Origin: a virus
Taxonomy: Duplodnaviria; Heunggongvirae; Uroviricota; Caudoviricetes
DNA: 13,740 bases
Virus record (IMG/VR): IMGVR_UViG_2695420746_000009
Location: 1 to 13,740 of that record
Strand: one strand, 5' to 3'
Under the pieces are notes generated by a model that was not told where the DNA came from, did no database searches, and was given only the letters and a program-made list of their open reading frames with translations. Shown piece by piece: positions 2,158 to 13,528 of the stretch (position 1 is its first letter; every line of letters begins with the position of its first letter). The position numbers and the translations under genes were made by a program.

Positions 2158-2179
2158 AAAAAAACCGCCATAAAGGCGG
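2158..2179 (-). terminator. Intrinsic terminator for leftward transcription (GC hairpin plus U7)
   Basis: Plus strand CCGCC-ATAAA-GGCGG (2165-2179) preceded by a run of 7 A (2158-2164). On the minus strand this is a 5-bp all-GC stem followed by UUUUUUU. Confidence 0.6.
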
Positions 2180-2218
2180 CTTGTTGGCTATTGGGTACAA
2201 AAAACCCAACTTAACAAA

Positions 2219-2247
2219 ACAATAACTAAAAACCGTCATTTTGCCAA
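2219..2247 (-). promoter_or_regulatory. Candidate sigma70 promoter firing leftward into the terminator and late genes (pR'-like by position)
   Basis: Minus-strand TTGGCA (rc of 2242-2247), 17-nt spacer, TATTGT (rc of 2219-2224). The terminator lies about 30-55 nt downstream. No other promoter-like sequence is visible before the methyltransferase start. Confidence 0.35.
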
Positions 2248-2264
2248 GCTTTTTCGTTTTTGTG

Positions 2265-2286
2265 CTGTGCGACCATGGTCGCACAG
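2265..2286. repeat. Perfect 22-bp palindrome CTGTGCGACCATGGTCGCACAG; copy 1 of dispersed TGCGACC-NN-GGTCGCA motif (candidate centromere-like site)
   Basis: Read directly. Intergenic, about 20 bp upstream of the candidate late promoter -35. Same core as the copies at 6573-6590 and 9017-9034. Confidence 0.5.
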
Positions 2287-2857: not shown

Positions 2858-2915
2858 TTTTATATTTGCTTTGTTTTCTCGTTTTGGTGTATTTTGCGCG
2901 TTAGGAGGCTATAAT

Positions 2916-3227
2916 ATGTTTAACGTGATAACCCACCCTGCAGCACTGGATGAACTGCTTGAACTACCAGACGATCTGCGAGGTCGCATGACCAGGCTAA
3001 TTGAACGACTGGAGAAAGAGGGAAACAAACTTAAGATGCCCCATAGCCGTGTAATAGGCGGAGGACTCTTTGAACTAAGAGTAGGGGATAAAAACATCGC
3101 AAGAACGCTATACGCCTACGCGACTGGTAACGAAATTTATCTATTGCATGCATTTGTAAAAAAGACACAGAAAACACCAGTAAAGGCTATAGAAATCGCC
3201 AGAACTCGCCTGAAGGAGATGAACTGA
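2916..3227 (+). CDS. Type II toxin, RelE/ParE superfamily, HigB/Gp49-like (addiction module killer protein)
   Basis: 103 aa from the ATG with SD AGGAGG 7 nt upstream. Family-typical motifs LFELR, LLHAF and KKTQKTP. Stop overlaps the start of the downstream HTH gene by 1 nt. The ORF-track start at 2871 is over-extended. Confidence 0.8.
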   Translation: MFNVITHPAALDELLELPDDLRGRMTRLIERLEKEGNKLKMPHSRVIGGGLFELRVGDKNIARTLYAYATGNEIYLLHAFVKKTQKTPVKAIEIARTRLKEMN

Positions 3228-3514
3228 TGAAAGCAAAAGGCATCCCGTTTAACGAAGTAAAGGAAAAACTACTCAACACTCCAGAAGCTATCAAAGGATA
3301 TGAAGAGGCCGATAAAGAACTGGAGATGGTCGAAATGTTATACGAAATGAGGGAAAGAGCAGGTTTAACGAAGTCAGCTCTGGCAGAACGAATGGGATTG
3401 CGCCCGTCCGCCATCAGCCGCCTGGAAAGCAATCCTTTAGGGGCAAGCATGAAAACTTTATCAAAATATGCCCAAGCATGTGGCGCAACAATTAATATTA
3501 ATGCCGTCTATTGA
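3227..3514 (+). CDS. HTH (XRE-family) antitoxin, HigA-like antidote protein
   Basis: 95 aa. Classic HTH LTKSALAERMGLRPSAISRLE. Translationally coupled to the upstream toxin in toxin-first (HigBA-type) order. Confidence 0.8.
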   Translation: MKAKGIPFNEVKEKLLNTPEAIKGYEEADKELEMVEMLYEMRERAGLTKSALAERMGLRPSAISRLESNPLGASMKTLSKYAQACGATININAVY

Positions 3515-3557: not shown

Positions 3558-3776
3558 TCAATGATGTAAACACTCCACAGCAATCGCTTGTTGGCAATTC
3601 TGAGCAATCTCCCGCGACATACTAACAAGCCGTGAAATCTCGCCAAGATGCAAGCTAGCTTCGGGAGAAGCCAGAGCAACGCTAACCAGATCCAAAACGG
3701 CGTCGATGTCTTTTAGGTTTGATCCGAGTTCTTCAAGAGTTGATACAGATGCTTCAGTCATTGAATCTAATACCAT
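3558..3776 (-). CDS. Hypothetical small acidic protein; candidate LexA-regulated gene
   Basis: 72 aa, rich in D/E. No recognisable SD in front of the ATG. A consensus-like LexA box lies 23 nt upstream. Coding status uncertain. Confidence 0.4.
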   Translation of the reverse strand: MVLDSMTEASVSTLEELGSNLKDIDAVLDLVSVALASPEASLHLGEISRLVSMSREIAQNCQQAIAVECLHH

Positions 3777-3798
3777 TTAATTAAAAAAGGTTATTTGA

Positions 3799-3818
3799 TA
3801 CTGTATAAAATTACAGGG
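3799..3818. promoter_or_regulatory. Candidate LexA (SOS) box
   Basis: TACTGTATAAAATTACAGGG: CTGT-N8-ACAG with an AT-rich spacer, 16 of 20 matches to TACTGTATATATATACAGTA. Overlaps a possible -10 (TACAGT on the minus strand) for the 3558-3776 ORF. It is the only CTGT-N8-ACAG found in the intergenic regions inspected. Confidence 0.55.
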
Positions 3819-4017
3819 TAAAACTCAAATTTTATAGCCAACTTTCAATGGATTAACAGGGTTAATAGCTTTGTAGTCCGATACTTATGTTCTCTTCCTA
3901 CGCCTCACTCAACCACCTACAGAAGCCCATCATCACCATAAGAAAAACTCTTTTCGCTTCGTTTTCTCATCATTTCAAAAACTATGCCTTTTTGTTTATT
4001 TATCATTCCGTGACCAG

Positions 4018-4344
4018 TCACACTTTGAGCACAAGTTTCAGCCTCGTAGTTGTAAGGTGACATGAGCCTTCACCATCAAAAATACATTCTGAAACAGGCA
4101 TTTTCTGACCACATCGCGGGCAAGTAGTAGATAGCTGCTTCTGCAGCTCCTTATAGTTTTTCCTGATCAGCAGACCGATGACTTCATTCTCTGAATATGG
4201 AACTCGTCCCGGTCTACGCAATACACAAATTTCCCCCAACATACGTAGCTCGTCAGGTTCCAGAATCCAGTCCCGTCTTGATGTGCCTTCCTTCTTCAAC
4301 CGTTCCCTGCGTCTCCTTTGCCGTTCTGCAGCTGTCAGCGCCAT
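4018..4344 (-). CDS. Hypothetical protein with arginine-rich N-terminus and C-terminal Cys cluster
   Basis: 108 aa. SD AGGAGG 4 nt upstream. N-terminus AERQRRRRERLKK; Cys cluster CPRCG...C...C. Last gene of the minus-strand operon. Confidence 0.6.
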   Translation of the reverse strand: MALTAAERQRRRRERLKKEGTSRRDWILEPDELRMLGEICVLRRPGRVPYSENEVIGLLIRKNYKELQKQLSTTCPRCGQKMPVSECIFDGEGSCHLTTTRLKLVLKV

Positions 4345-4359
4345 AAATCCTCCTGAAAA

Positions 4360-5034
4360 TTACTTAACCCAATTAACTACACCGCCAGCGGCCACAACCG
4401 CTTTTTCACAGTCACGCTCATATCTCAAAGGTTGAAATACACCATCAATAAAATATTTATCTCCACCACATGCTGCAGGAAGTGAAACAGAAAACTGAAT
4501 ATGACCATCCGGAGTTACCGGAGAGTTGCCAGCCTCATACGCTACCCTTATCCAGTGCATAAGCATTTCTGTACTTACACATCCACAATCAACATCAATT
4601 TTGTCATGCTGCTGTTCCAGCCATTGCTCAAAAGTTAACTTGTAAGTTTGGCTTATAGGTTTGGCTTCCAGTTCTGCTATGTGATTTTTGGCTGATTCCA
4701 ACTCAATCGACAATTTTTCCAACTGCTCTTTATGCTTCTTGTATTCCTGATATGCGTGCCAAGACTGACCTTTGCGCACACTATCCGTGATATCAGTAAT
4801 CTGTTCTGGTGTTAGCGTGGTCAGTGGCTGTGCTGGGAAAATCAGCACTTTCCCGGAATCCCAATCAAAACCAGCGTGAATTGACTGAACCTCAACTGAA
4901 GGTGTTGAACCAATGCTGCCAGGCGAATGAACAACGATCGTTACATCCATATCGCGACGATCGCTGTGGTTGTTGGACAAAATACGATTCAACAAAATAC
5001 GATTCACCAACTCAGAAAATTTAGAAAATTTCAT
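4360..5034 (-). CDS. Hypothetical protein with central coiled-coil
   Basis: 224 aa. ATG overlaps the upstream gene stop (ATGA). Coiled-coil-like region KKHKEQLEKLSIELESAKNHIAELEAK. Contains an in-frame 15-bp tandem duplication near the 5' end. Confidence 0.65.
   Translation of the reverse strand: MKFSKFSELVNRILLNRILSNNHSDRRDMDVTIVVHSPGSIGSTPSVEVQSIHAGFDWDSGKVLIFPAQPLTTLTPEQITDITDSVRKGQSWHAYQEYKKHKEQLEKLSIELESAKNHIAELEAKPISQTYKLTFEQWLEQQHDKIDVDCGCVSTEMLMHWIRVAYEAGNSPVTPDGHIQFSVSLPAACGGDKYFIDGVFQPLRYERDCEKAVVAAGGVVNWVK
4977..5006. repeat. Perfect tandem duplication of 15 bp (ACAAAATACGATTCA x2), in frame inside CDS 4360-5034
   Basis: Read directly. Encodes the repeated NRIL(L/S) unit in the N-terminus. 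Confidence 0.8.
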
Positions 5035-5321
5035 GCTGATTCACCTTTCTCTGCTCTCTCCTGTCGGAACATCACTATCATCAGGTCGCCTTTTGTCGCT
5101 ATCTTGGCTGTTGTGCCTGGCTCAATGCGGCTAAGTTCAAATGCGTCATAGAACGCCTCCAACGCTTTCTGGCGTTTTTCCTGTTTGCGGCGCTTTCCCC
5201 ACTGCTTTAGAAAAACAGAGGCCGCCCACTTCCCCGCACTGAACATGATGTAAAACCAACCGAGAAGTGCCAGACCGGTATTTAGGGCCGTATCGATCGT
5301 TATCGTGGTGTCGATATTCAC
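5031..5321 (-). CDS. Small membrane protein (one predicted TM segment), GTG start
   Basis: 96 aa from GTG at 5321, which is preceded by SD AGGAGG at 7-nt spacing and overlaps the upstream stop (TAGTG). TM-like segment GLALLGWFYIMFSAGKWAASVFL followed by a basic stretch. The ORF-track start at 5399 would overlap the upstream gene by 79 nt. Confidence 0.55.
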   Translation of the reverse strand: MNIDTTITIDTALNTGLALLGWFYIMFSAGKWAASVFLKQWGKRRKQEKRQKALEAFYDAFELSRIEPGTTAKIATKGDLMIVMFRQERAEKGESA

Positions 5322-5740
5322 TACGCCACCTCCTGAAAATTTCCCTGATAAAACGCCAACACACGCTGCATAACTTCGCTCTTCCGACAATCGTGACAAA
5401 TCATGTTCAAGCGCCTGTCGTAACGACGTATTTCTCCATCAGGTAATGACCAGATAAGGTCAGGATCAACAACTACCGATTTCTTCGGCTTTACTCTTGA
5501 TAGCTTTTTGCGGGCGTTTTGCCAGTCCTTGCGCGCTTGTGCAGACAGAAATATCCCGGAGCCAGAGATATACAAATCACCACTGGTGGCAAGCTCTCTG
5601 GATAAACGATTAACAGCACATCGGCTAATACTAATTTCATCTGCCAGTTGCCTAACCGTTCCTCGCCCATTCAGGCGCACGAGTTCCACAATTTGTTTCT
5701 TCAGTTCTTCACGCTGTTCTGGTGTAAAAACTTTTGCCAT
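5321..5740 (-). CDS. HTH-containing DNA-binding protein, function unknown
   Basis: 139 aa. SD GGAGA 6 nt upstream. ATG overlaps the exonuclease stop (TAATG). HTH-like stretch VRQLADEISISRCAVNRLSREL. Confidence 0.7.
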   Translation of the reverse strand: MAKVFTPEQREELKKQIVELVRLNGRGTVRQLADEISISRCAVNRLSRELATSGDLYISGSGIFLSAQARKDWQNARKKLSRVKPKKSVVVDPDLIWSLPDGEIRRYDRRLNMICHDCRKSEVMQRVLAFYQGNFQEVA

Positions 5741-6339
5741 TACGATTCTCCTTTCCCTTTTATGAGACGGGAGAAAATTGCGGATACATACTTAGCCTGA
5801 TGAATAGCATCAGCTAGGGCATGGTGTCGTTCGCCATCAAATGGCATATCTTTTTTAGAATTGAAACCAATAAACTGACCAAGATTAACGATTGTTCGAA
5901 CATCCTGATCATTAAAATATTCCCACGGACAGGCTAAGCCAACGCGCTCATAAGCACCGCGTAAAATTACATTGTCGAATGTTGCTCCATTTCCCCATAC
6001 TTTCAATTTTTTTAAATTACATGCATGGCAAGTAATAAAGTGTGATAATTCAAAAAGTGCATCCTTAATATCAAGGGCATCATTAGTACAAATTGCGGCT
6101 CTGGCTTCCTTGCTCTGTTTCAACCACCATAAAATGGTATCACCATCGGCGACACCACCATTCAACATCGAGCTTCTGAGATTCACTGGCACATAAAAAG
6201 TAGGACCTAATTCCTCACTTTCTGGAGAAAAAAACACTGCCCCGATAGAAACAATTGGAGCACATGTGTTAGTACCCATTGTTTCAAGGTCAATCATTAC
6301 ATCAGACCGTTTCCTGTCGTAAATAATCTGATTAGTCAC
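5740..6339 (-). CDS. DEDDh-family 3'-5' exonuclease (DnaQ-like fold)
   Basis: 199 aa. Exo I motif MIDLETMG (D-x-E), Exo II GNGATFDNVIL, Exo III HHALADAIHQAKY (H-x4-D with Tyr). GTG start with SD GAGGAG 8 nt upstream. Confidence 0.75.
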   Translation of the reverse strand: MTNQIIYDRKRSDVMIDLETMGTNTCAPIVSIGAVFFSPESEELGPTFYVPVNLRSSMLNGGVADGDTILWWLKQSKEARAAICTNDALDIKDALFELSHFITCHACNLKKLKVWGNGATFDNVILRGAYERVGLACPWEYFNDQDVRTIVNLGQFIGFNSKKDMPFDGERHHALADAIHQAKYVSAIFSRLIKGKGES

Positions 6340-6362
6340 GAATAATTCTCCTCAACGTTTAT

Positions 6363-6566
6363 CTATACCCAAATTTTCTGTTGATATGTTCTGGATGGTT
6401 TTGGCGTTCTTTCTGATTCAGGTAAATGAACATAAACGCAATATCCATCACCTAAAAAATCAGAACGAACAACCAGAACTTTCTTACCACGCCGCCGATA
6501 AGTATCTGAAAGACGCTCTGCTTCATCATGCGTCATCGGCCCCTGCTTAAATGGCGTTATTTTCAT
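6363..6566 (-). CDS. Hypothetical small basic protein
   Basis: 67 aa from the ATG (MKITPFKQ...). The 18-bp palindrome lies 6 nt upstream of the start; no clear SD. The ORF-track start at 6590 is a GTG inside the palindrome. Confidence 0.5.
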   Translation of the reverse strand: MKITPFKQGPMTHDEAERLSDTYRRRGKKVLVVRSDFLGDGYCVYVHLPESERTPKPSRTYQQKIWV

Positions 6567-6867
6567 TTTCTTGTGCGACCGCGGTCGCACCCTCGCTGAT
6601 TTCCAAGTAACGCTTAATCCAAAGATTTTCTATATGCTTATTACCTGGCTGATTTGATAAATACCAATCGGCAATTACAGACTGCTTATTACTATCTGGT
6701 CGTGTCCTGTAACCACAAGTTGGACACCAGATAACATATTCATTTCTTACCCCCGAATACCTTAATTCTGGCTTCGACGGTTTCCTGAACATAACTTGTT
6801 TACAAAGGCAGAATGGCACTTCCTGCCCGATGGCGTTTGATGATTTCACTGCGCTTCTCCGCCGCAT
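6547..6867 (-). CDS. Hypothetical protein with Cys pairs (CxC ... CPxCG), possible zinc ribbon
   Basis: 106 aa as given in the ORF track; start uncertain (no SD at either candidate ATG, and it overlaps the upstream gene by 68 nt if full length). Cys pattern CLC ... CPTCG. Confidence 0.4.
   Translation of the reverse strand: MRRRSAVKSSNAIGQEVPFCLCKQVMFRKPSKPELRYSGVRNEYVIWCPTCGYRTRPDSNKQSVIADWYLSNQPGNKHIENLWIKRYLEISEGATAVAQENENNAI
6573..6590. repeat. Perfect 18-bp palindrome GTGCGACCGCGGTCGCAC; copy 2 of TGCGACC-NN-GGTCGCA motif
   Basis: Read directly. Lies within the 3' end of ORF 6547-6867 (encoding ATAVAQ) and immediately upstream of the start of the 6363-6566 gene. Confidence 0.5.
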
Positions 6868-7510
6868 TTAATAATGCGGTTCGATTTAAGCTCAGACATC
6901 GCGACTTAATTAAAAGCCAGCGTTCTTTATAATCTTGTCTCCAGCTATCAATAGATATATTCAGTAGAAAACTCAGATGCCTGTCCTGTTCTCTCTCATC
7001 AACTGCCTCAGCACACGTAAGTTCTGATTTAACCTGCTGTGCCGCGTAATAAATCAATTTCCGCATGGCTTTTTTCGTGGAGGCCTTCATTTTTTTAAAG
7101 CCGCCCCCAGAATGAGCAACCAGAAAATCAAGCCATAACCACTGACAAACAATCACATCATTGTTGTAGTCAGGCTTGCATCCGTAGCAATAATAAAGCC
7201 AGGCTGATTCCTCGTTATTCAACTGACCAATAGCCCTGCGCCAGCTGGCGCTCTGAAAATCAATATCAGTGAGCAACATTGATGATTGTTTAAATGTTTT
7301 CCCTTGGTGGAATCTAACCGACTCAGCGGGAACGGACACTTCGTATGAGTTATCATCCCCCACACTGATTGACCGGACTGGTTTATTGTTAAACCGTCCT
7401 GATCTACCGAGACGCATCTGCTCAAGCTGGACCTCCAGAATGCCACGCTGGCGATAATGAACATCAGCCAATGCCGTAGAGACGCAGCTGCGTATATACT
7501 CAAGCTCCAC
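6800..7510 (-). CDS. Hypothetical protein; positional candidate for a late-gene antiterminator (Q-like), unverified
   Basis: 236 aa. GTG start with SD AGGAGA at 9-nt spacing, overlapping the cro-like stop by 11 nt. First gene after the cro-like gene. I cannot confirm Q-family membership by eye. Confidence 0.55.
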   Translation of the reverse strand: MELEYIRSCVSTALADVHYRQRGILEVQLEQMRLGRSGRFNNKPVRSISVGDDNSYEVSVPAESVRFHQGKTFKQSSMLLTDIDFQSASWRRAIGQLNNEESAWLYYCYGCKPDYNNDVIVCQWLWLDFLVAHSGGGFKKMKASTKKAMRKLIYYAAQQVKSELTCAEAVDEREQDRHLSFLLNISIDSWRQDYKERWLLIKSRCLSLNRTALLNAAEKRSEIIKRHRAGSAILPL

Positions 7511-7721
7511 GCTTACGACTCTCCTTAATCGACTGCTTTACCCGCCGAGTTGTAAAGTCACTCTTCAGCTTGTAAGCAGTACGAACTTCAATATCGCTTT
7601 GCCGCAATGAAGGAATCTCTCCAGCGGTTAACCATTGGTAAACAGCTCCGGGTGTTACACCTACCCCTGCCGCTGCTTTTTCAACACTGCCAAAGTGGCG
7701 AATAAGTTCTTCTGGTTTCAT
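7500..7721 (-). CDS. Cro-like HTH regulator
   Basis: 73 aa from the ATG giving MKPEELIRHF. HTH VGVTPGAVYQWLTAGEIP resembles the lambda Cro GVYQSAINKAI region. Divergent from the CI-like gene across an operator-bearing intergenic region. TATAAT lies 7 nt upstream of the ATG, so the mRNA may be leaderless. Confidence 0.7.
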   Translation of the reverse strand: MKPEELIRHFGSVEKAAAGVGVTPGAVYQWLTAGEIPSLRQSDIEVRTAYKLKSDFTTRRVKQSIKESRKRGA

Positions 7722-7749
7722 GTTGTTATTATAAACAATAAATAACAAT

Positions 7750-7812: not shown

Positions 7813-8409
7813 ATGAAAACACGAGGCGAACGACTGAAAGCACGCCGTTTAGAGATGAAGCTGACGTTGCGAGAAGTTGCTGAGGCTGTCGATATCTCTA
7901 TAGCAGGCGTCCAAAACTTAGAACGTGGCGACGTAATGCCGTCACTGGAGATAGGTATTGCCCTGGCTAAGTGCTTACGCAAGCCAGTGCATTGGGTGCT
8001 ATATGGGACAGAATATGACCCTGATCGCATTCCTGTTATTGGCACAACTGAAAGTGGGCCTGATGAAGAGTGGAAGCCGGGACAGGTTCCAAATACTGAG
8101 CGATTCCTGCCATTCATCAGCCAGCGCAATACTGTGTATGCGTTAACTATCAGCAATCTTACGCAGGGAAACTATCAGCCAGGCGATTTTCTCCTGGTCG
8201 ATTCTGCGCTGGAACTGGTCCCCGGCGAGGATGTTCTGGTTCGTGATACTGCAGGAAATATCACTATCCAGCGCCTAGCCCGTTTTGATGATGAAAATTA
8301 CTATCTGGATGGAACAAACTCACAACGCGCCATCTTCAGGAAAAGCGATCTTGAATTTGTTCACCAAATAGTCGGAACGATCAAATCATTCATGGTTGAG
8401 GGTAGATGA
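7813..8409 (+). CDS. CI-like prophage repressor (N-terminal XRE HTH, C-terminal CI/LexA-like domain)
   Basis: 198 aa. HTH LTLREVAEAVDISIAGVQNLERG. C-terminal region resembles lambda CI around PGDF (QPGDFLLVDS ... VGTIKS). I could not locate a canonical G-D-S-M catalytic Ser context by eye, so autocleavage competence is uncertain. Confidence 0.8.
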   Translation: MKTRGERLKARRLEMKLTLREVAEAVDISIAGVQNLERGDVMPSLEIGIALAKCLRKPVHWVLYGTEYDPDRIPVIGTTESGPDEEWKPGQVPNTERFLPFISQRNTVYALTISNLTQGNYQPGDFLLVDSALELVPGEDVLVRDTAGNITIQRLARFDDENYYLDGTNSQRAIFRKSDLEFVHQIVGTIKSFMVEGR

Positions 8410-8654: not shown

Positions 8655-11600
8655 ATGACATTAAACGATTTCTATGCGGATCGCTTTGGCAGCGATCCGT
8701 TCTCGCTAATTGAAGCAGCACGGGATGAACTAACCGAGCTGGCACAGATGGCTGGTATCAACTGGCCTGCCTGTTCCGACAACATCCAACTCAACCCTCG
8801 CGGGGGAGTTGAGCGTTACTCTTCATACAATAAAACATCTCCAGAAGCTCTCGAAAAGAGCCTGAAAGGACGCGTAGAAATTTACTCCCGGCTGGAACAC
8901 AGCAAAGGGATTGATTACCCGTTCATTAACTTCGTCCATAAAGGCAGCGATGCTGGCTCATGGAGCGGTTTCTCCTTCCTGTTTTCTGAATATCGCCGTG
9001 AGCAACAACGGAATAATGCGACCGTGGTCGCACAACCGGAAGAAGAACGGGAAAGAATAGAACGTCAGGCCGAAGCACGTCGTCGCCGTGAAGAACAAAA
9101 ACGAATTAATGACCTGAAAAACAACCAAATGGACCATGAACGTTTGCTGGGATGGCTGGCATTCCACAGCGCGTGGGAACATGCTCCGGCTGAAGACGGC
9201 TCATGGCCATATGCGATTAAAAAAGGTATTCGTGACGTTTTTAGTTCATGTGATGTGCGTCGCGTGACCAGTCACGACAGTGCGAAATGGAGCCGGGGGC
9301 CAACCACATATATGGCTATCCCTCTGGCTCACCTGGACGGTCGTTACGATGGTCGTATTGTGGGTTGGCAGCGAATCGACAAACAAGGTGGGAAATACCA
9401 GACCAGCGCAGTAACCAGCGGCGATTTCGTCGGTGCCTGCTTTGTTATCGGTGAGCTGAAAGGGGCGCAAAACATCGCTGTTACAGAAGGTTTTGCTACT
9501 GGTGCATCCATCTGGCTTGCCACGAAAAAAGATAAACGCTTTGACGCTGTGGTTGTCGCTGTATCCGCTAACAACATGGTTCATGTTGTGGAACAACTGG
9601 TAAACATGTACCCAGCGGCAAAAATCACCTGCGCACTGGATAATGACCGGAAATCTGCCACAGAAGGAAAAGGGAATACCGGCCTGCGGACTGGCTATGA
9701 AATCTTATCGAAATTCAACGATGTCCGCTGCGTCTATCCAACTTTTGAAGACGATCCGCAAATGGAGTGCAGTGACTTCAACGACCTGCACAAACTACGT
9801 GGACTTCGTGAAACCGCACGTCAACTATTTACAACAGCAAACCGCCTGAAAACCGGTACTGATTTGCTATCTCTGACGCTCAACCGCCTGAAGACAATTA
9901 AGCGGGATAACCGTCGTACTTTTGCCAAAGAGCTGCTGAGAGCGGTGGATATTGGCATGCTAACCTGTCCAGTTCCTAACAGTCCGTCAGATTTATTTAA
10001 CATGTTCTGCATCGTTCTGCGTGAAATGGGACTGGAAAATATCTATCGCGCTACGGTAAAAGACCACATTGCCCGTCGCCTGAATAAAAAGTGCCGTATT
10101 GCCCAGGCTCCGCGCTCTTTCAGCGAACGCATAACTGATCCCAATAAACGCCCTCAACATATCACCTATAAGCGTTTTGAAACTTCGGTAATGACCGATG
10201 ATGTCCTGAAGTACGTGCAATCACTACAAGGGATAGTCATCGTCCGTGCTGGTATGGGTTCCGGCAAATCTACAGGATTGTTACGACCATTAATGCATAG
10301 CTCAGAACGTGGTATCTCTGTTGCTCACCGTGTCTCCCTTATTGGTGGCCTGTGGGAAATGATGACAGAAGGAAAAGGTGTAAAAGCCGATATCCTGCAC
10401 TATCAGGACCCTGGCTATCAGGAAATGGCTCCATACGCCAGTAAACTGACCATCTGCATAAACTCGATTGTCAAAAACTGCTGGCAACCGTTGATGCGCC
10501 AGCACGACTATTTTGGCTTTGACGAGGCCACACAAGGGCTACGTGCCGTTCTTTCCGGTCGGGCTATGGAAAACCCGGTGGCTGTATTCAATACGCTAAT
10601 TGACGCGCTGGCCAGAACGGAACAACACCCAATCATGGTGGATGCTGATGCGAACGATCTGCTGGTTGACCTAGCTGAACTGGCTATGAAACGCCGTGAA
10701 GAACTAGGTTTACCGGCATGGCTGCAGATCCACGTAATTGAATTACCTGTTGATGTTCGCAACCGCGAAACAGGTGAGCCAATCCGGGTTTTTTATACAG
10801 AAAAAGATCGCATCATGACCGAGGTGGTGAAAGCTGTATCGGATGGCGAAAAAATCATGTTGGCCACCGACAGCTCCACCTTTGCAGAAGATGTGACAGC
10901 CACCCTGAGAATGCATTTTCCTGGTAAGAAATTTCTGTGTGTAAACCAGAAAAACAAACCAGAGCCAGAAGTTGAAGCATTTACCAATCAACCGAAAAAG
11001 ATGGTCAAAAAATACGACGGCCTGATTTATAGCCCGTCTATTTCATCCGGCGTGTCGATTGAGCAAAAACATTTTGACCGTCATTTCGGCATGTTCTGTG
11101 GTGAAGTTGTACCCAGCGACGCAGTGCAAATGCTACGCCGCGACCGTACAGCAAAAGAATTTATTATCGGCTTTGATAAAGCTCGTGCAAAACGTGAAAC
11201 TGACCCGCAAAAAATAGAACGAGCATTCGCCCAGGCATTGCTTGCTACCGCAGGTATGAACGGTGAACTGACGGATGTTGTTTTCGATGGCGACCGTATA
11301 TCAATGGGGGTGGCCAATACCGACTTTACCAGGATGAAAATTAAAGCAGCCGCAATTGAAGCGACTGCGCGTAACGACTACGCCAGCAACATGATCTGCA
11401 TCATGCACAGCGACGGTTATAAGGTATCGCCGCTGGCCACCGATTATGCTGCGAATGATATCGGTAAAGATCTGCGTAAAGAAGCGCGGGATATTGTGTG
11501 GGAACAGACACTGGATCTGCACCTCAATACAGAAACTCCACAAGAATCAGAGCGTGAAGAACTGCTAAAAAAACGCGCGCTGACGCTTGAAGAACAGGCA

Positions 11601-12698
11601 AAACTTGTCCGCTGGGATATTGAAAACGAACTGAAACTACCGGTTGAAGAAGGCACGCTGAAATTCTATTTCGATGGTGCTCGAGACAAAGTTCGCCGCT
11701 ATGAAACAATGCTTTTAGATGAGGTAACAGCTCGTCGTTACGACCGGGAAGAAGCAGCCATCAATTTTACCTACGCATACCGTCAGGCGGGACAGTGGCA
11801 ATATTTTGTAGTGACCGCGATGACTCGCGAGCAGGCTGATGATGTCTTTAAAACTAAATTCCCTGGAATAATCGATCACAAGGTAAAAGCTACTCCTACT
11901 GTTGAAGTCGGGGCGCGCGGTTTCTATGCGCTTAAATCAGCAACTCTCCGGCAGTACTTTATCGACTGCGGTATCAACCCTGAGACTATGACCGGCGAGG
12001 CGACTCAGGAGCGTCTCAAATTTGCTCGAGATAACCTCATGACAGCCGAACGCCGTGACCTGTTGAATAACGTTCTGCACATTGGTGGTTTTATGACGCC
12101 AAAAGGGAAGCCTAAAGTGCCGGAAGCGTTGTTTAAAAACATTTGCGACTCTCTTGGCCTTAAAACAGGTAAACGTCGCGGCAGAGACGGCGATAAGCGT
12201 CCAACCTTGCGTTTTGTTGAGCCTGAATCAGCGGCATTTATGCTGGATATTCTTGCTCAGCGTCAGAAAGATGGCCTAACCCTGAAAACGCGTAAAGCCG
12301 AGAAGACCGCCATCGAAATGGATCGCGATTTGGATCTCAATATATATATGGATGATAAAACGCGATCCACAAACGAGCAGGTTCAAAACGCCCCTCATTC
12401 AGTAATTTCTGAGGCTTTGGCTGTGTTGCCAGTGGTTGTACCTGAGTCCTGGGCGATGAGTGCGCTTTCCGGTGAGGAGCTGGCCACTATGTCATCATGG
12501 TCATCAGCCAGCATAGCTATGACGTTTGCATCTCTGTACCTCACAGAGTTCATGGATCACTTATCCAGCAATGAACTGCGGCGGTTACGTGAATACATTA
12601 CCGGGAATAGCTGGATTTGCCCCTATATTTCCAGACATCTGTTATCACTTAACCCATTACAAGCCCGCTGCCGCAGATATTCCCGTGGCGAGCGATAA
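8655..12698 (+). CDS. Large multidomain replication initiator (primase-helicase, N15 RepA-like); 3' end disrupted by IS2
   Basis: 1347 codons as an ORF. Toprim-like motifs ([12 protein letters not shown] and CALDNDR) around aa 280-330, Walker A GMGSGKST around aa 535, Walker B-like FGFDEAT, then a roughly 700-aa C-terminal region. Native sequence ends at 12611 (1319 codons); codons 1320-1347 are read from the IS2 terminal inverted repeat. Weak SD. Confidence 0.8.
9017..9034. repeat. Palindrome TGCGACC-GT-GGTCGCA; copy 3 of the motif, inside the repA-like coding sequence
   Basis: Read directly. Encodes ATVVAQ in a charged linker ([21 protein letters not shown]), in the same codon phase as copy 2 (ATAVAQ). 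Confidence 0.5.
12320..12368. other. Candidate origin-like element inside the 3' part of the repA-like gene
   Basis: 8-bp inverted repeats GGATCGCG / CGCGATCC flank ATTTGGATCTCAATATATATATGGATGATAAAA, which includes an (AT)5 run and three GATC sites within 49 bp. Confidence 0.3.
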
Positions 12699-13528
12699 CC
12701 CAGCGCACTATGCGGATGCCATTCGTTATAATGCTCGAACGCCTCTGCAAGGTTCTTTGCTGCCGTTAACCCGTCTGGTTTGGGCATGATACTGATGTAG
12801 TCACGCTTTATCGTTTTCACGAAGCTCTCTGCTATTCCGTTACTCTCCGGACTCCGCACCGCCGTGTTCTTCGGTTCAAGTCCCAACATCCGGGCGAACT
12901 GGCGTGTTTCATTAGCCCGGTAGCATGAACCATTATCCGTCAGCCACTCCACTGGAGACGACGGAAGATCGTTGCCGAAGCGGCGTTCCACCGCTCCCAG
13001 CATGACGTCCTGTACTGTTTCACTGTTGAAGCCGCCGGTAGTCACCGCCCAGTGCAGTGCCTCACGATCACAGCAGTCCAGCGCGAACGTGACACGCAGT
13101 CTCTCTCCGTTATCACAGCAGAACTCGAACCCGTCAGAGCACCATCGCTGATTGCTTTCTTTCACGGCCACTCTGCCTGTATGTGCCCGTTTCGATGGCG
13201 GTACAGCAGGTTTTCGCTCAAGCAACAGCGCATTCTGGCGCATGATCCGGTAAACACGTTTGGCATTGATCGCAGGCATACCATCAAGTTCTGCCTGTCT
13301 GCGAAGCAGCGCCCATACCCGACGATAACCATACGTGGGCAGCTCTCCGATAACATGGTGTATACGGAGAAGCACATCCGTATCATCAGTGTGACGACTG
13401 CGGCGGCCATCCATCCAGTCATCGGTTCGTCTGAGAATGACGTGCAACTGCGCACGCGACACCCGGAGACAACGGCTGACTAAGCTTACTCCCCATCCCC
13501 GGGCAATAAGGGCGCGTGCGCTATCCAC
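12623..13528 (-). CDS. insD: IS2 transposase OrfB (InsD), normally expressed as an OrfAB fusion by -1 frameshift
   Basis: 301 aa beginning [23 protein letters not shown] and ending SDNRCLEI, matching IS2 InsD from memory. DDE-type integrase core. Confidence 0.9.

Follow-up and report, generated by a model that had tools for sequence, protein, structure and literature searches.

Five tightly packed genes of an N15-like phage-plasmid are probably mosaic accessory cargo of its early cro-Q operon

When five small genes abut one another on a single strand of a phage genome, do they form one functional system, or are they neighbors in a longer string? Positions 6339..4018 (minus strand) of a 13,740-nucleotide (nt) stretch of caudoviral DNA, IMG/VR record IMGVR_UViG_2695420746_000009 (hereafter the window, meaning the whole stretch analyzed), raise this question. 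An earlier note made from the sequence alone had described this block as a translationally coupled five-gene operon of unknown function, co-expressed in fixed stoichiometry and possibly serving host takeover, superinfection exclusion, or anti-defense. We found that the 4.3 kb around the block share 95% nucleotide identity and the order of genes with two Escherichia phages, YDC107_1 (a Ravinvirus) and PhiR46_1, and that the layout of the window is that of the right arm of phage N15 itself. By these comparisons the window is part of an N15-like (Ravinvirus) linear phage-plasmid of Escherichia coli or Shigella. The exact sequences of all five proteins occur in many public E. coli and Shigella sonnei assemblies, and deposited phage genomes already contain them, mostly labeled “hypothetical”. 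Our answer, which we consider probable, is that the block forms the far end of this linear plasmid-prophage's early cro-Q operon and consists of mosaic accessory genes rather than the parts of a five-protein machine.

The five open reading frames (ORFs), here called G1 to G5 in minus-strand order, are co-oriented and abutting, as had been described. G1 (GTG 6339..5740, 199 amino acids [aa]) begins 23 nt after the end of a small upstream gene, orf75; G2 (ATG 5740..5321, 139 aa) overlaps G1 in the sequence TAATG; G3 (GTG 5321..5031, 96 aa) overlaps G2 in TAGTG; G4 (ATG 5034..4360, 224 aa) overlaps G3 in ATGA; and G5 (ATG 4344..4018, 108 aa) follows G4 after a 15-nt gap that contains AGGAGG. A Shine-Dalgarno-like sequence precedes the start of each gene, and because all five proteins have strong family matches in Pfam and PHROG, we take them to be genes and not chance ORFs. 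For G3, the program-made ORF list gives TTG 5399 as the start; we favor GTG 5321, which has AGGAGG 8 nt upstream and yields a protein the size of its homologues (91-97 aa). The start of G1 is ambiguous: GTG 6339 is preceded at 8 nt by the Shine-Dalgarno sequence GAGGAG, and ATG 6297, which would give 185 aa, is poorly spaced, though it is the choice of the NCBI pipeline in many records. Neighboring stop and start codons are thus overlapping or adjoining, on a single strand free of intervening terminators, the pattern of a translationally coupled operon, and coupling is predicted from it.

We then examined whether the five genes travel together, using 290 IMG/VR loci (L008-L297) collected around relatives of G1, G2, G3, and G5, each scored for all genes. 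All 48 N15-like loci share a backbone of cro, Q, lar, orf75, an exonuclease gene, a variable segment, gp46, antC, a toxin-antitoxin pair, gp50, gp51, and a methylase gene (three of them are cut short upstream). The stretch between orf75 and gp46 is the variable part: G1, G2, and a G4-type gene are found in 15-16 of the 48 loci, with G3 in addition in 13 of them, and 30 of the 48 carry N15 gp41 in the exonuclease place with other cargo after it. Outside the N15-like phages the genes are found apart. Among 70 loci around G2 relatives, G3 occurs once and G1, G4-like genes, and G5 never; 64 loci around G1 relatives contain G2 in none, G3 in 3, G4-like genes in 2, and G5 in 5; and for 66 loci around G3 relatives the counts are 1 for G1, 6 for G2, 49 for G4-like genes, and 3 for G5. 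Co-occurrence of all five genes across unrelated genomes was not found in the total of 297 loci compared. The YDC107_1-like lineage keeps the five together at 91-99% identity, but even here three loci lack G3 and carry a G4 allele at 47-48% identity while G1, G2, and G5 stay at 94-99%. The block is therefore a lineage-specific assembly of independently exchanged cassettes, and the proposal that the five genes act as one unit in fixed stoichiometry is not supported, since they are separate outside this phage lineage.

Comparison with N15 leads to the same picture. N15 genes 41-46 lie on the same strand and in the same position relative to cB, cro, Q, antC, the toxin-antitoxin genes, gp50, gp51, and the methylase gene, and are packed alike; the first of them also encodes a DEDDh exonuclease, and the last, gp46, is homologous to G5. 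The content in between differs. N15 gp41 (gene 41, 12161-13075 in our N15 locus, L003) is an RNase_T-type DEDDh domain fused to a Lar domain (PF00929 plus PF14354), not a PF16473 protein, and its BLASTP comparison with G1 is not significant. N15 gp42-45 have no similarity to G2-G4, so that N15 retains gp46 only of the five. We had suspected from their sizes that N15 gp44 and gp45 were counterparts of G3 and G2, and rejected this when no similarity was found.

Close packing is not a peculiarity of these five genes. Upstream, cro and Q overlap by 11 nt, Q and a Lar-like ORF by 68 nt, and the Lar-like ORF and orf75 by 44 nt, and N15 genes 41-47 show the same compactness. The operon therefore extends further than the five genes to which it had been assigned: the string starts upstream of G1 and runs through orf75, the Lar-like ORF, Q, and cro. 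On the minus strand, cro (7500..7748; PF14549 P22_Cro, E 2.5e-22; 87% identity to N15 gp39) is the first gene of this early-right string, followed by the Q-type antiterminator (6800..7510; PF06323, E 1e-82; 66% identity to N15 gp40). The Lar-like restriction-alleviation ORF (6547..6867, minus strand), which overlaps the 3' end of Q, matches phrog_6795 at E 3e-45 and its N15 counterpart at 79% identity; its match to PF14354 (E 3.5e-4) is under the Pfam cut-off. The small conserved ORF orf75 (6363..6590, minus strand) matches phrog_1212 at E 2e-25 and its N15 counterpart at 54% identity. Of the 48 N15-like loci, 45 have both ORFs; the remaining three are those cut short upstream. In the N15 reference record, a 412-bp unannotated “gap” between genes 40 and 41 contains both, the Lar-like counterpart at 11654-11971 and that of orf75 at 11931-12152.

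No terminator-like site was detected by a scan from Q to the end of G5, and a sigma-70 promoter scan gave no convincing match, the only one (6074..6045, inside G1) being at chance level. Well downstream lies a putative Q-target region at 2162..2284 (minus strand), where scans matched a SopB site (2267-2284), promoter-like hexamers (2247..2219), and a terminator hairpin (2182..2162). Here a late-promoter-like site, TTGGCA-17-TATTGT, is followed by a strong terminator hairpin, and the stretch is 87% identical to the N15 sequence annotated as -35, -10, and terminator. We interpret 2247..2162, which precedes the methylase and lysis genes, as a likely Q-dependent late promoter with an early terminator. 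On this assignment the Q-target region bounds the early accessory region, and the five genes sit between the Q gene and the late promoter.

These observations suggest how the block could be expressed. The operon would run in the order P_R, cro, Q, the Lar-like ORF, orf75, G1, G2, G3, G4, and G5. Infection or induction would remove the CB repressor, and RNA polymerase would then read the whole string from P_R, early; we infer the promoter and the timing from gene position. The slot from Q to the late promoter would serve as a cargo bay for small exchangeable early genes, like the exo-xis and nin regions. The overlapping stops and starts would reflect the usual compaction of phage operons, which may bring some translational coupling and does not indicate a five-subunit complex.

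As to what each gene may contribute, G1 matches PF16473 (the Rv2179c-like/DexA family) at E 7.7e-68 and 228 bits against a cut-off of 27, with residues 13-188 covering positions 2-176 of the 177 in the profile, and phrog_255, labeled “exonuclease”, at E 3e-81. It is 27% identical to T4 DexA (PDB 8KEL, E 1.4e-7), and the DexA entries 8KEL and 8KEN are the only solved structures related to it. Residues D17, E19, and D122 align with D7, E9, and the FD motif of DexA (the D-x-E and the following D of DEDDh), and the H-x4-D motif can be read from the sequence as H172-x4-D177 (“HHALAD”). By full-length family match and catalytic residues, G1 belongs to the DexA/Rv2179c family of DEDDh 3'-5' exonucleases, in agreement with the earlier assignment. 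PF16473 proteins are present in 746 of 50,697 phage records, lytic and temperate. Outside the N15-like phages, 22 of the 64 loci with G1 relatives have SSB adjoining the exonuclease gene and 19 have Abc2; in mEp235 the order is Erf, SSB, exonuclease, Abc2 (annotated as anti-RecBCD), xis, and int, and in ST64B the relative adjoins xis-int. Judging from T4 DexA and from these Erf-SSB-Abc2 relatives, G1 would trim DNA at its 3' ends, as part of recombination or of early DNA metabolism.

A more specific role was considered for G1. The E. coli DexA homologue EcD (HREX) degrades T4 DNA containing 5-hydroxymethylcytosine (5hmC) and is reported to protect against T4 (PMC12153337). G1 is unlikely to be a protein of the EcD/HREX type: the diagnostic Asp-to-Ala change is absent, G1 D93 aligning with the tetramer-forming D90 of DexA, which is Ala in EcD. 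With regard to the residues that recognize 5hmC, F142 and W139 of G1 fall near DexA W152, and an equivalent of D169 is unplaceable in a 27% alignment whose C-terminal half is out of register.

G2 matches PF06163 (DUF977) at E 2.4e-28 and 99 bits against a cut-off of 22.1, and its residues 1-136 cover the whole 134-position profile. A weak HTH_24 match marks an N-terminal winged-helix/helix-turn-helix (HTH) region, which fits the HTH protein named in the earlier note. PHROG places G2 in phrog_142, “Ren-like exclusion protein” (E 3e-41), and BLASTP aligns residues 112-131 with residues 73-92 of lambda Ren at 50% identity over 20 residues (E 9e-6), the rest being unaligned. Ren allows lambda to escape Rex exclusion. 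Relatives of G2 immediately follow replication genes of the O or DnaT type, the position that Ren holds in lambda. Based on these similarities, G2 could be a Ren-type winged-helix protein that binds DNA or interacts with the host. Literature searches on DUF977 and DUF4752, the family of G3, found no functional work, and the name “LygF” proved to be a mere gene label from a Salmonella prophage remnant and uninformative.

G3 and the N-terminal domain of G4 are the only recurrent pair among the five. G3 matches PF15944 (DUF4752) at E 5.8e-41 and 139 bits against a cut-off of 27; its residues 12-38 form a single, moderately hydrophobic segment, after which comes a stretch rich in Lys and Arg. G4 is a three-part protein, with an N-domain (1-124), a heptad-rich stretch at about 90-125, which bears out the coiled coil seen before, and a variable C-terminal part. 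It matches phrog_6026 over residues 1-117 (E 1e-53) and phrog_368 (E 1e-40); no Pfam or NCBIfam match was obtained, and its C-terminal 100 residues had no Pfam match even at E <= 1 (NCBIfam gave nothing useful on any of the five proteins). A P1-like phage encodes a protein with 89% identity to residues 1-124, and relatives that share the first ~83% of G4 carry a PF04448 (DUF551) C-terminus, a domain not detected in G4 itself. By sequence, G4 can be classed with the modular, mosaic coiled-coil proteins called DUF551/“Ea22-like”. In PhiR46_1 the name “Ea22” was assigned by the depositor, and true homology to Ea22 was rejected: BLASTP to lambda Ea22 gives E 0.27, and neither an NCBIfam match nor a PDB match to the solved Ea22 domain was found. 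In 68 of 79 cases a 4-nt overlap joins DUF4752 to the gene behind it, which encodes the G4 N-domain in 44 of the 79, and relatives of the two genes occur in P1-like phages and lambdoid early regions. G3 and G4 could thus act as a translationally coupled pair, a small protein with a hydrophobic segment and then a modular coiled-coil protein.

G5 is 77% identical to N15 gp46 over 108 of 108 residues and matches its PHROG family at E 5e-32, and in each of the 48 N15-like loci the gp46 homologue closes the string ahead of the gp47/antC region. When 1.84 billion representatives were searched with a profile, 101 clusters proved related to G5, nearly all of 100-120 aa. None of the 101 has a Pfam family, and no sequence match to any Pfam ribbon-helix-helix (RHH) family was found. 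With 10 close homologues, AlphaFold2 gave an unusable model (predicted local distance difference test [pLDDT] score, 51); once the profile search supplied 53 distant homologues, the pLDDT rose to 92. A basic helix comes first in the model, then an RHH-like core (about residues 23-71), and last, at the C-terminus, a module of four cysteines (C75, C78, C87, and C95), and the family alignment shows the typical strand-helix pattern. Being Arg-rich and carrying four conserved C-terminal cysteines, G5 fits the Arg-rich Cys-cluster protein of the earlier description. Foldseek searches of the PDB and BFVD with the model returned nothing significant. G5 is likely a dimeric RHH DNA-binding regulator with a zinc-type Cys module, as the predicted fold suggests. 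Profile comparison links the Cys module weakly to the TraR/YbiI zinc finger (E 0.02-0.03). It agrees with the DksA/TraR finger, C-x2-C-x17-C-x2-C, in its first CxxC and in the distance to C95 but has no second CxxC, in whose place C87 would have to serve; we treat this weak resemblance as a lead rather than a finding. Of two distant relatives whose contexts we looked up, one lies in the nin region of a lambdoid contig, in the order DUF551 protein, DUF4752, gp46-like gene, NinB, YbcO, and RusA, and the other between an integrase-like gene and a holin gene.

Several observations weigh against so simple an account. G1 and G2 are fixed in the lineage, and a DEDDh exonuclease always occupies this place in telomere phages, so part of the block may be under common selection. 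A SopB centromere palindrome, GTGCGACCGCGGTCGCAC, the equivalent of N15 IR2, lies at 6573..6590, 234 bp upstream of G1, and could affect expression of the genes behind it. For G3, a membrane anchor is plausible from the hydrophobic segment, but the Kyte-Doolittle maximum over 19 residues is 1.27 (residues 12-30), under the usual transmembrane threshold; of the small membrane protein once proposed, it is the segment that stands and the score that falls short.

How do other readings of the block compare? A dedicated five-protein complex or pathway, made in fixed ratios for host takeover or superinfection exclusion, would account for the overlapping or abutting codons and for the joint retention of the set in the YDC107_1-like lineage. 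It is extremely unlikely given that the genes are found apart elsewhere, that three loci of this very lineage lose G3 and swap G4 while the other genes stay, that N15 keeps gp46 only, and that unrelated neighbors are packed equally tightly. The location directly downstream of Q, where lambda has P_R', would instead fit late genes whose transcription awaits modification of RNA polymerase by Q, at a promoter just past the Q gene. The stretch after Q is coding, however, occupied by the Lar-like ORF and orf75 with no promoter-terminator pair, and a pair of the Q-target type, conserved with the annotated N15 pair, lies 4 kb further on at 2247..2162; we give late expression next to no weight. Expression in the lysogen is also hard to reconcile with the map. 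A prophage that protects its host through an EcD-like G1 and a membrane-associated exclusion pair, G3 and G4, would draw on the reported activity of EcD against T4, on the alignment of G1 with DexA within one Pfam family, and on the hydrophobic segment of G3. Because the genes lie behind a repressor-controlled promoter, downstream of cro and Q, with no recognizable internal promoter, lysogen expression is not expected; moreover, G1 keeps Asp (D93) where EcD has Ala, and equivalents of DexA W152 and D169 are not reliably placed at 27% identity. We regard such protection as very unlikely.

An early anti-defense or host-interaction island deserves more attention, and it is a functional refinement of the mosaic-operon reading rather than a structural alternative to it. 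In this scheme several of the products would act soon after entry: the Lar-like protein would counter type I restriction, G2 would counter Rex-type abortive infection, and G1 would act on defense nucleic acids or host DNA. Its chief support is the association of exonuclease and Lar in telomere phages (a fusion in N15 gp41, adjacent genes in PY54), to which may be added the Lar-like ORF two genes upstream of G1, with its strong phrog_6795 match, the C-terminal motif common to G2 and lambda Ren, the early operon position, and the anti-RecBCD-annotated Abc2 next to the G1 relative of mEp235. Yet PADLOC, run on the five proteins, returned a weak DEDDh match only, with no known anti-defense family matched; a general link between exonuclease and Lar was rejected when a Lar-domain ORF appeared in 1 of 64 other loci with G1 relatives, so that the association is confined to telomere phages; the Pfam match of the Lar-like ORF is under the family cut-off; the mechanism of Ren is itself obscure; and G3, G4, and G5 offer no hint of such a role. 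For single genes (G1, G2, and the Lar-like gene) an anti-defense role is possible but rather unlikely. Mosaic accessory genes at the end of the early cro-Q operon remain the probable reading.

The surroundings of the block follow the N15 plan. On the plus strand lie a large RepA primase-helicase gene (8655..12698, assigned by comparison with N15) and a CB/cI-like repressor gene (7813..8409), divergent from cro; minus-strand order is cro, Q, the small-gene string, the AntC-like gene, gp50, gp51, methylase, holin, and lysozyme. Just beyond the block, a perfect LexA box, CTGTATAAAATTACAG (3801..3816, 0 mismatches), lies 25 nt upstream of ATG 3776 of the AntC-like gene and marks a predicted separate, SOS-controlled promoter. 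The AntC-like ORF behind it (3558..3776, minus strand, 72 aa), the next transcription unit downstream, matches phrog_6301 (E 3e-35) and phrog_10889, “anti-repressor” (E 2e-6), and is 56% identical to an unannotated N15 ORF; it is probably an SOS-controlled antC antirepressor gene. In N15, antC acts against the prophage repressor and its expression starts induction, with which the LexA box before the AntC-like ORF is consistent (PMC4488713). Between G5 and this box, at 3777-4017, a short remnant ORF stands where N15 and YDC107_1 have gene 47 after gp46; the gene 47 homologue is absent from the window. A RelE/HigB-like toxin gene (2871-3227, plus strand) and an HTH antitoxin gene (3227-3514, plus strand), with a 1-nt overlap, sit as a convergent pair between the AntC-like gene and gp50 on the strand opposite to their neighbors; they are homologues of N15 genes 49 and 48 (86% identity).

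An 18-bp palindrome, GTGCGACC-NN-GGTCGCAC, occurs three times in the window (2267-2284, 6573-6590, and 9016-9033) against 0.01 expected. The copies match the dispersed N15 SopB centromere sites IR3, IR2, and IR1, respectively (the sequences of N15 IR1-4 are given in Table 4 of PMC7205306). The IR1 copy lies inside repA, that of IR2 in the overlap of the Lar-like ORF with orf75, and that of IR3 just upstream of the late promoter. Similarity of repA to the YDC107_1 gene ends at 12463, ~175 nt short of the end of that gene; beyond this point come a sequence resembling an IS2 end (TGGATTTGCCCC...) and a transposase ORF of the IS3 family (12623..13528, minus strand). The 3' end of repA appears disrupted, and this prophage copy may be defective in replication. 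An Rfam scan of the window found no RNA family.

The main value of this analysis is a corrected annotation, in which the block is assigned to the early operon that starts with cro and Q in an N15-like phage-plasmid, each gene being an independent cassette. Experiments would accordingly best address the genes singly, or G3 and G4 as a pair, and not a complex of five proteins. What is new is modest: N15 gp46 and about 100 related clusters without a Pfam family can be described as predicted RHH proteins with a Cys4 module, two unannotated conserved ORFs follow Q in N15, one exonuclease has been replaced by a non-orthologous one, and DUF4752 recurs with a coiled-coil partner. The arrangement itself is a known N15-type accessory region and would not surprise a specialist.

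At the level of single proteins, G1 has its Pfam family (PF16473) and DEDDh motifs in common with T4 DexA and EcD, and is shorter than T4 DexA, without its extra loops. G2 resembles lambda Ren in being a small protein with an HTH-like N-terminal region and in its C-terminal motif, its PHROG, and, among relatives, its position after replication genes; it differs in length (139 aa versus 96 aa for Ren), in being a DUF977 protein where Ren had no significant Pfam match in our scan, and in not lying beside a replication gene in the window. Compared with RHH regulators such as Arc, CopG, ParD, and the N-domain of TraM, G5 has an additional N-terminal basic helix and the C-terminal four-Cys module.

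At the level of gene order, lambdoid phages also have mosaic strings of small early genes, mostly of undefined role, in their exo-xis (“ea”) and nin regions, which contain relatives of G1, G2, G3/G4, and G5. The exo-xis region of lambda is reported to affect the lysis-lysogeny decision (PMC7093339, PMC3824215). The lambdoid regions lie before Q or in the P_L operon, whereas the genes of the window come after Q, and none of the canonical lambda genes ea22, ea8.5, orf60a/61/63, or ninB-ninI is in the block. The statement that the set is no recognizable lambda recombination or nin module is therefore half right. It holds for those canonical genes, but G1 relatives lie in Erf-SSB-Abc2 modules, G2 relatives at the Ren position, and one G5 relative beside NinB-YbcO-RusA, and as a whole the block holds the position that genes 41-46 have in N15. 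Synteny with a known module is in part present, and an established function for each protein is not.

Among telomere phages, PY54 (5998-6931 in its locus, L254) has a PF16473 exonuclease gene that overlaps the Lar-domain gene immediately after it and is preceded by an RdgC-like gene. Downstream of Q, N15, PY54, and the lineage of the window all have a DEDDh 3'-5' exonuclease, drawn from two unrelated families, in company with a zinc-ribbon protein of the Lar type. Exonuclease and Lar are fused in N15, adjacent in PY54, and two genes apart in the window. That one DEDDh exonuclease is swapped for a non-homologous one between lineages suggests that the activity itself is selected in these phages. 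N15, PY54, and the lineage of the window might accordingly conserve an undescribed early nuclease and anti-restriction module, or a function tied to their hairpin-ended linear genomes; we think this unlikely, and the DUF4752 protein with its modular coiled-coil partner and the RHH-zinc protein gp46 could be further players in such a module.

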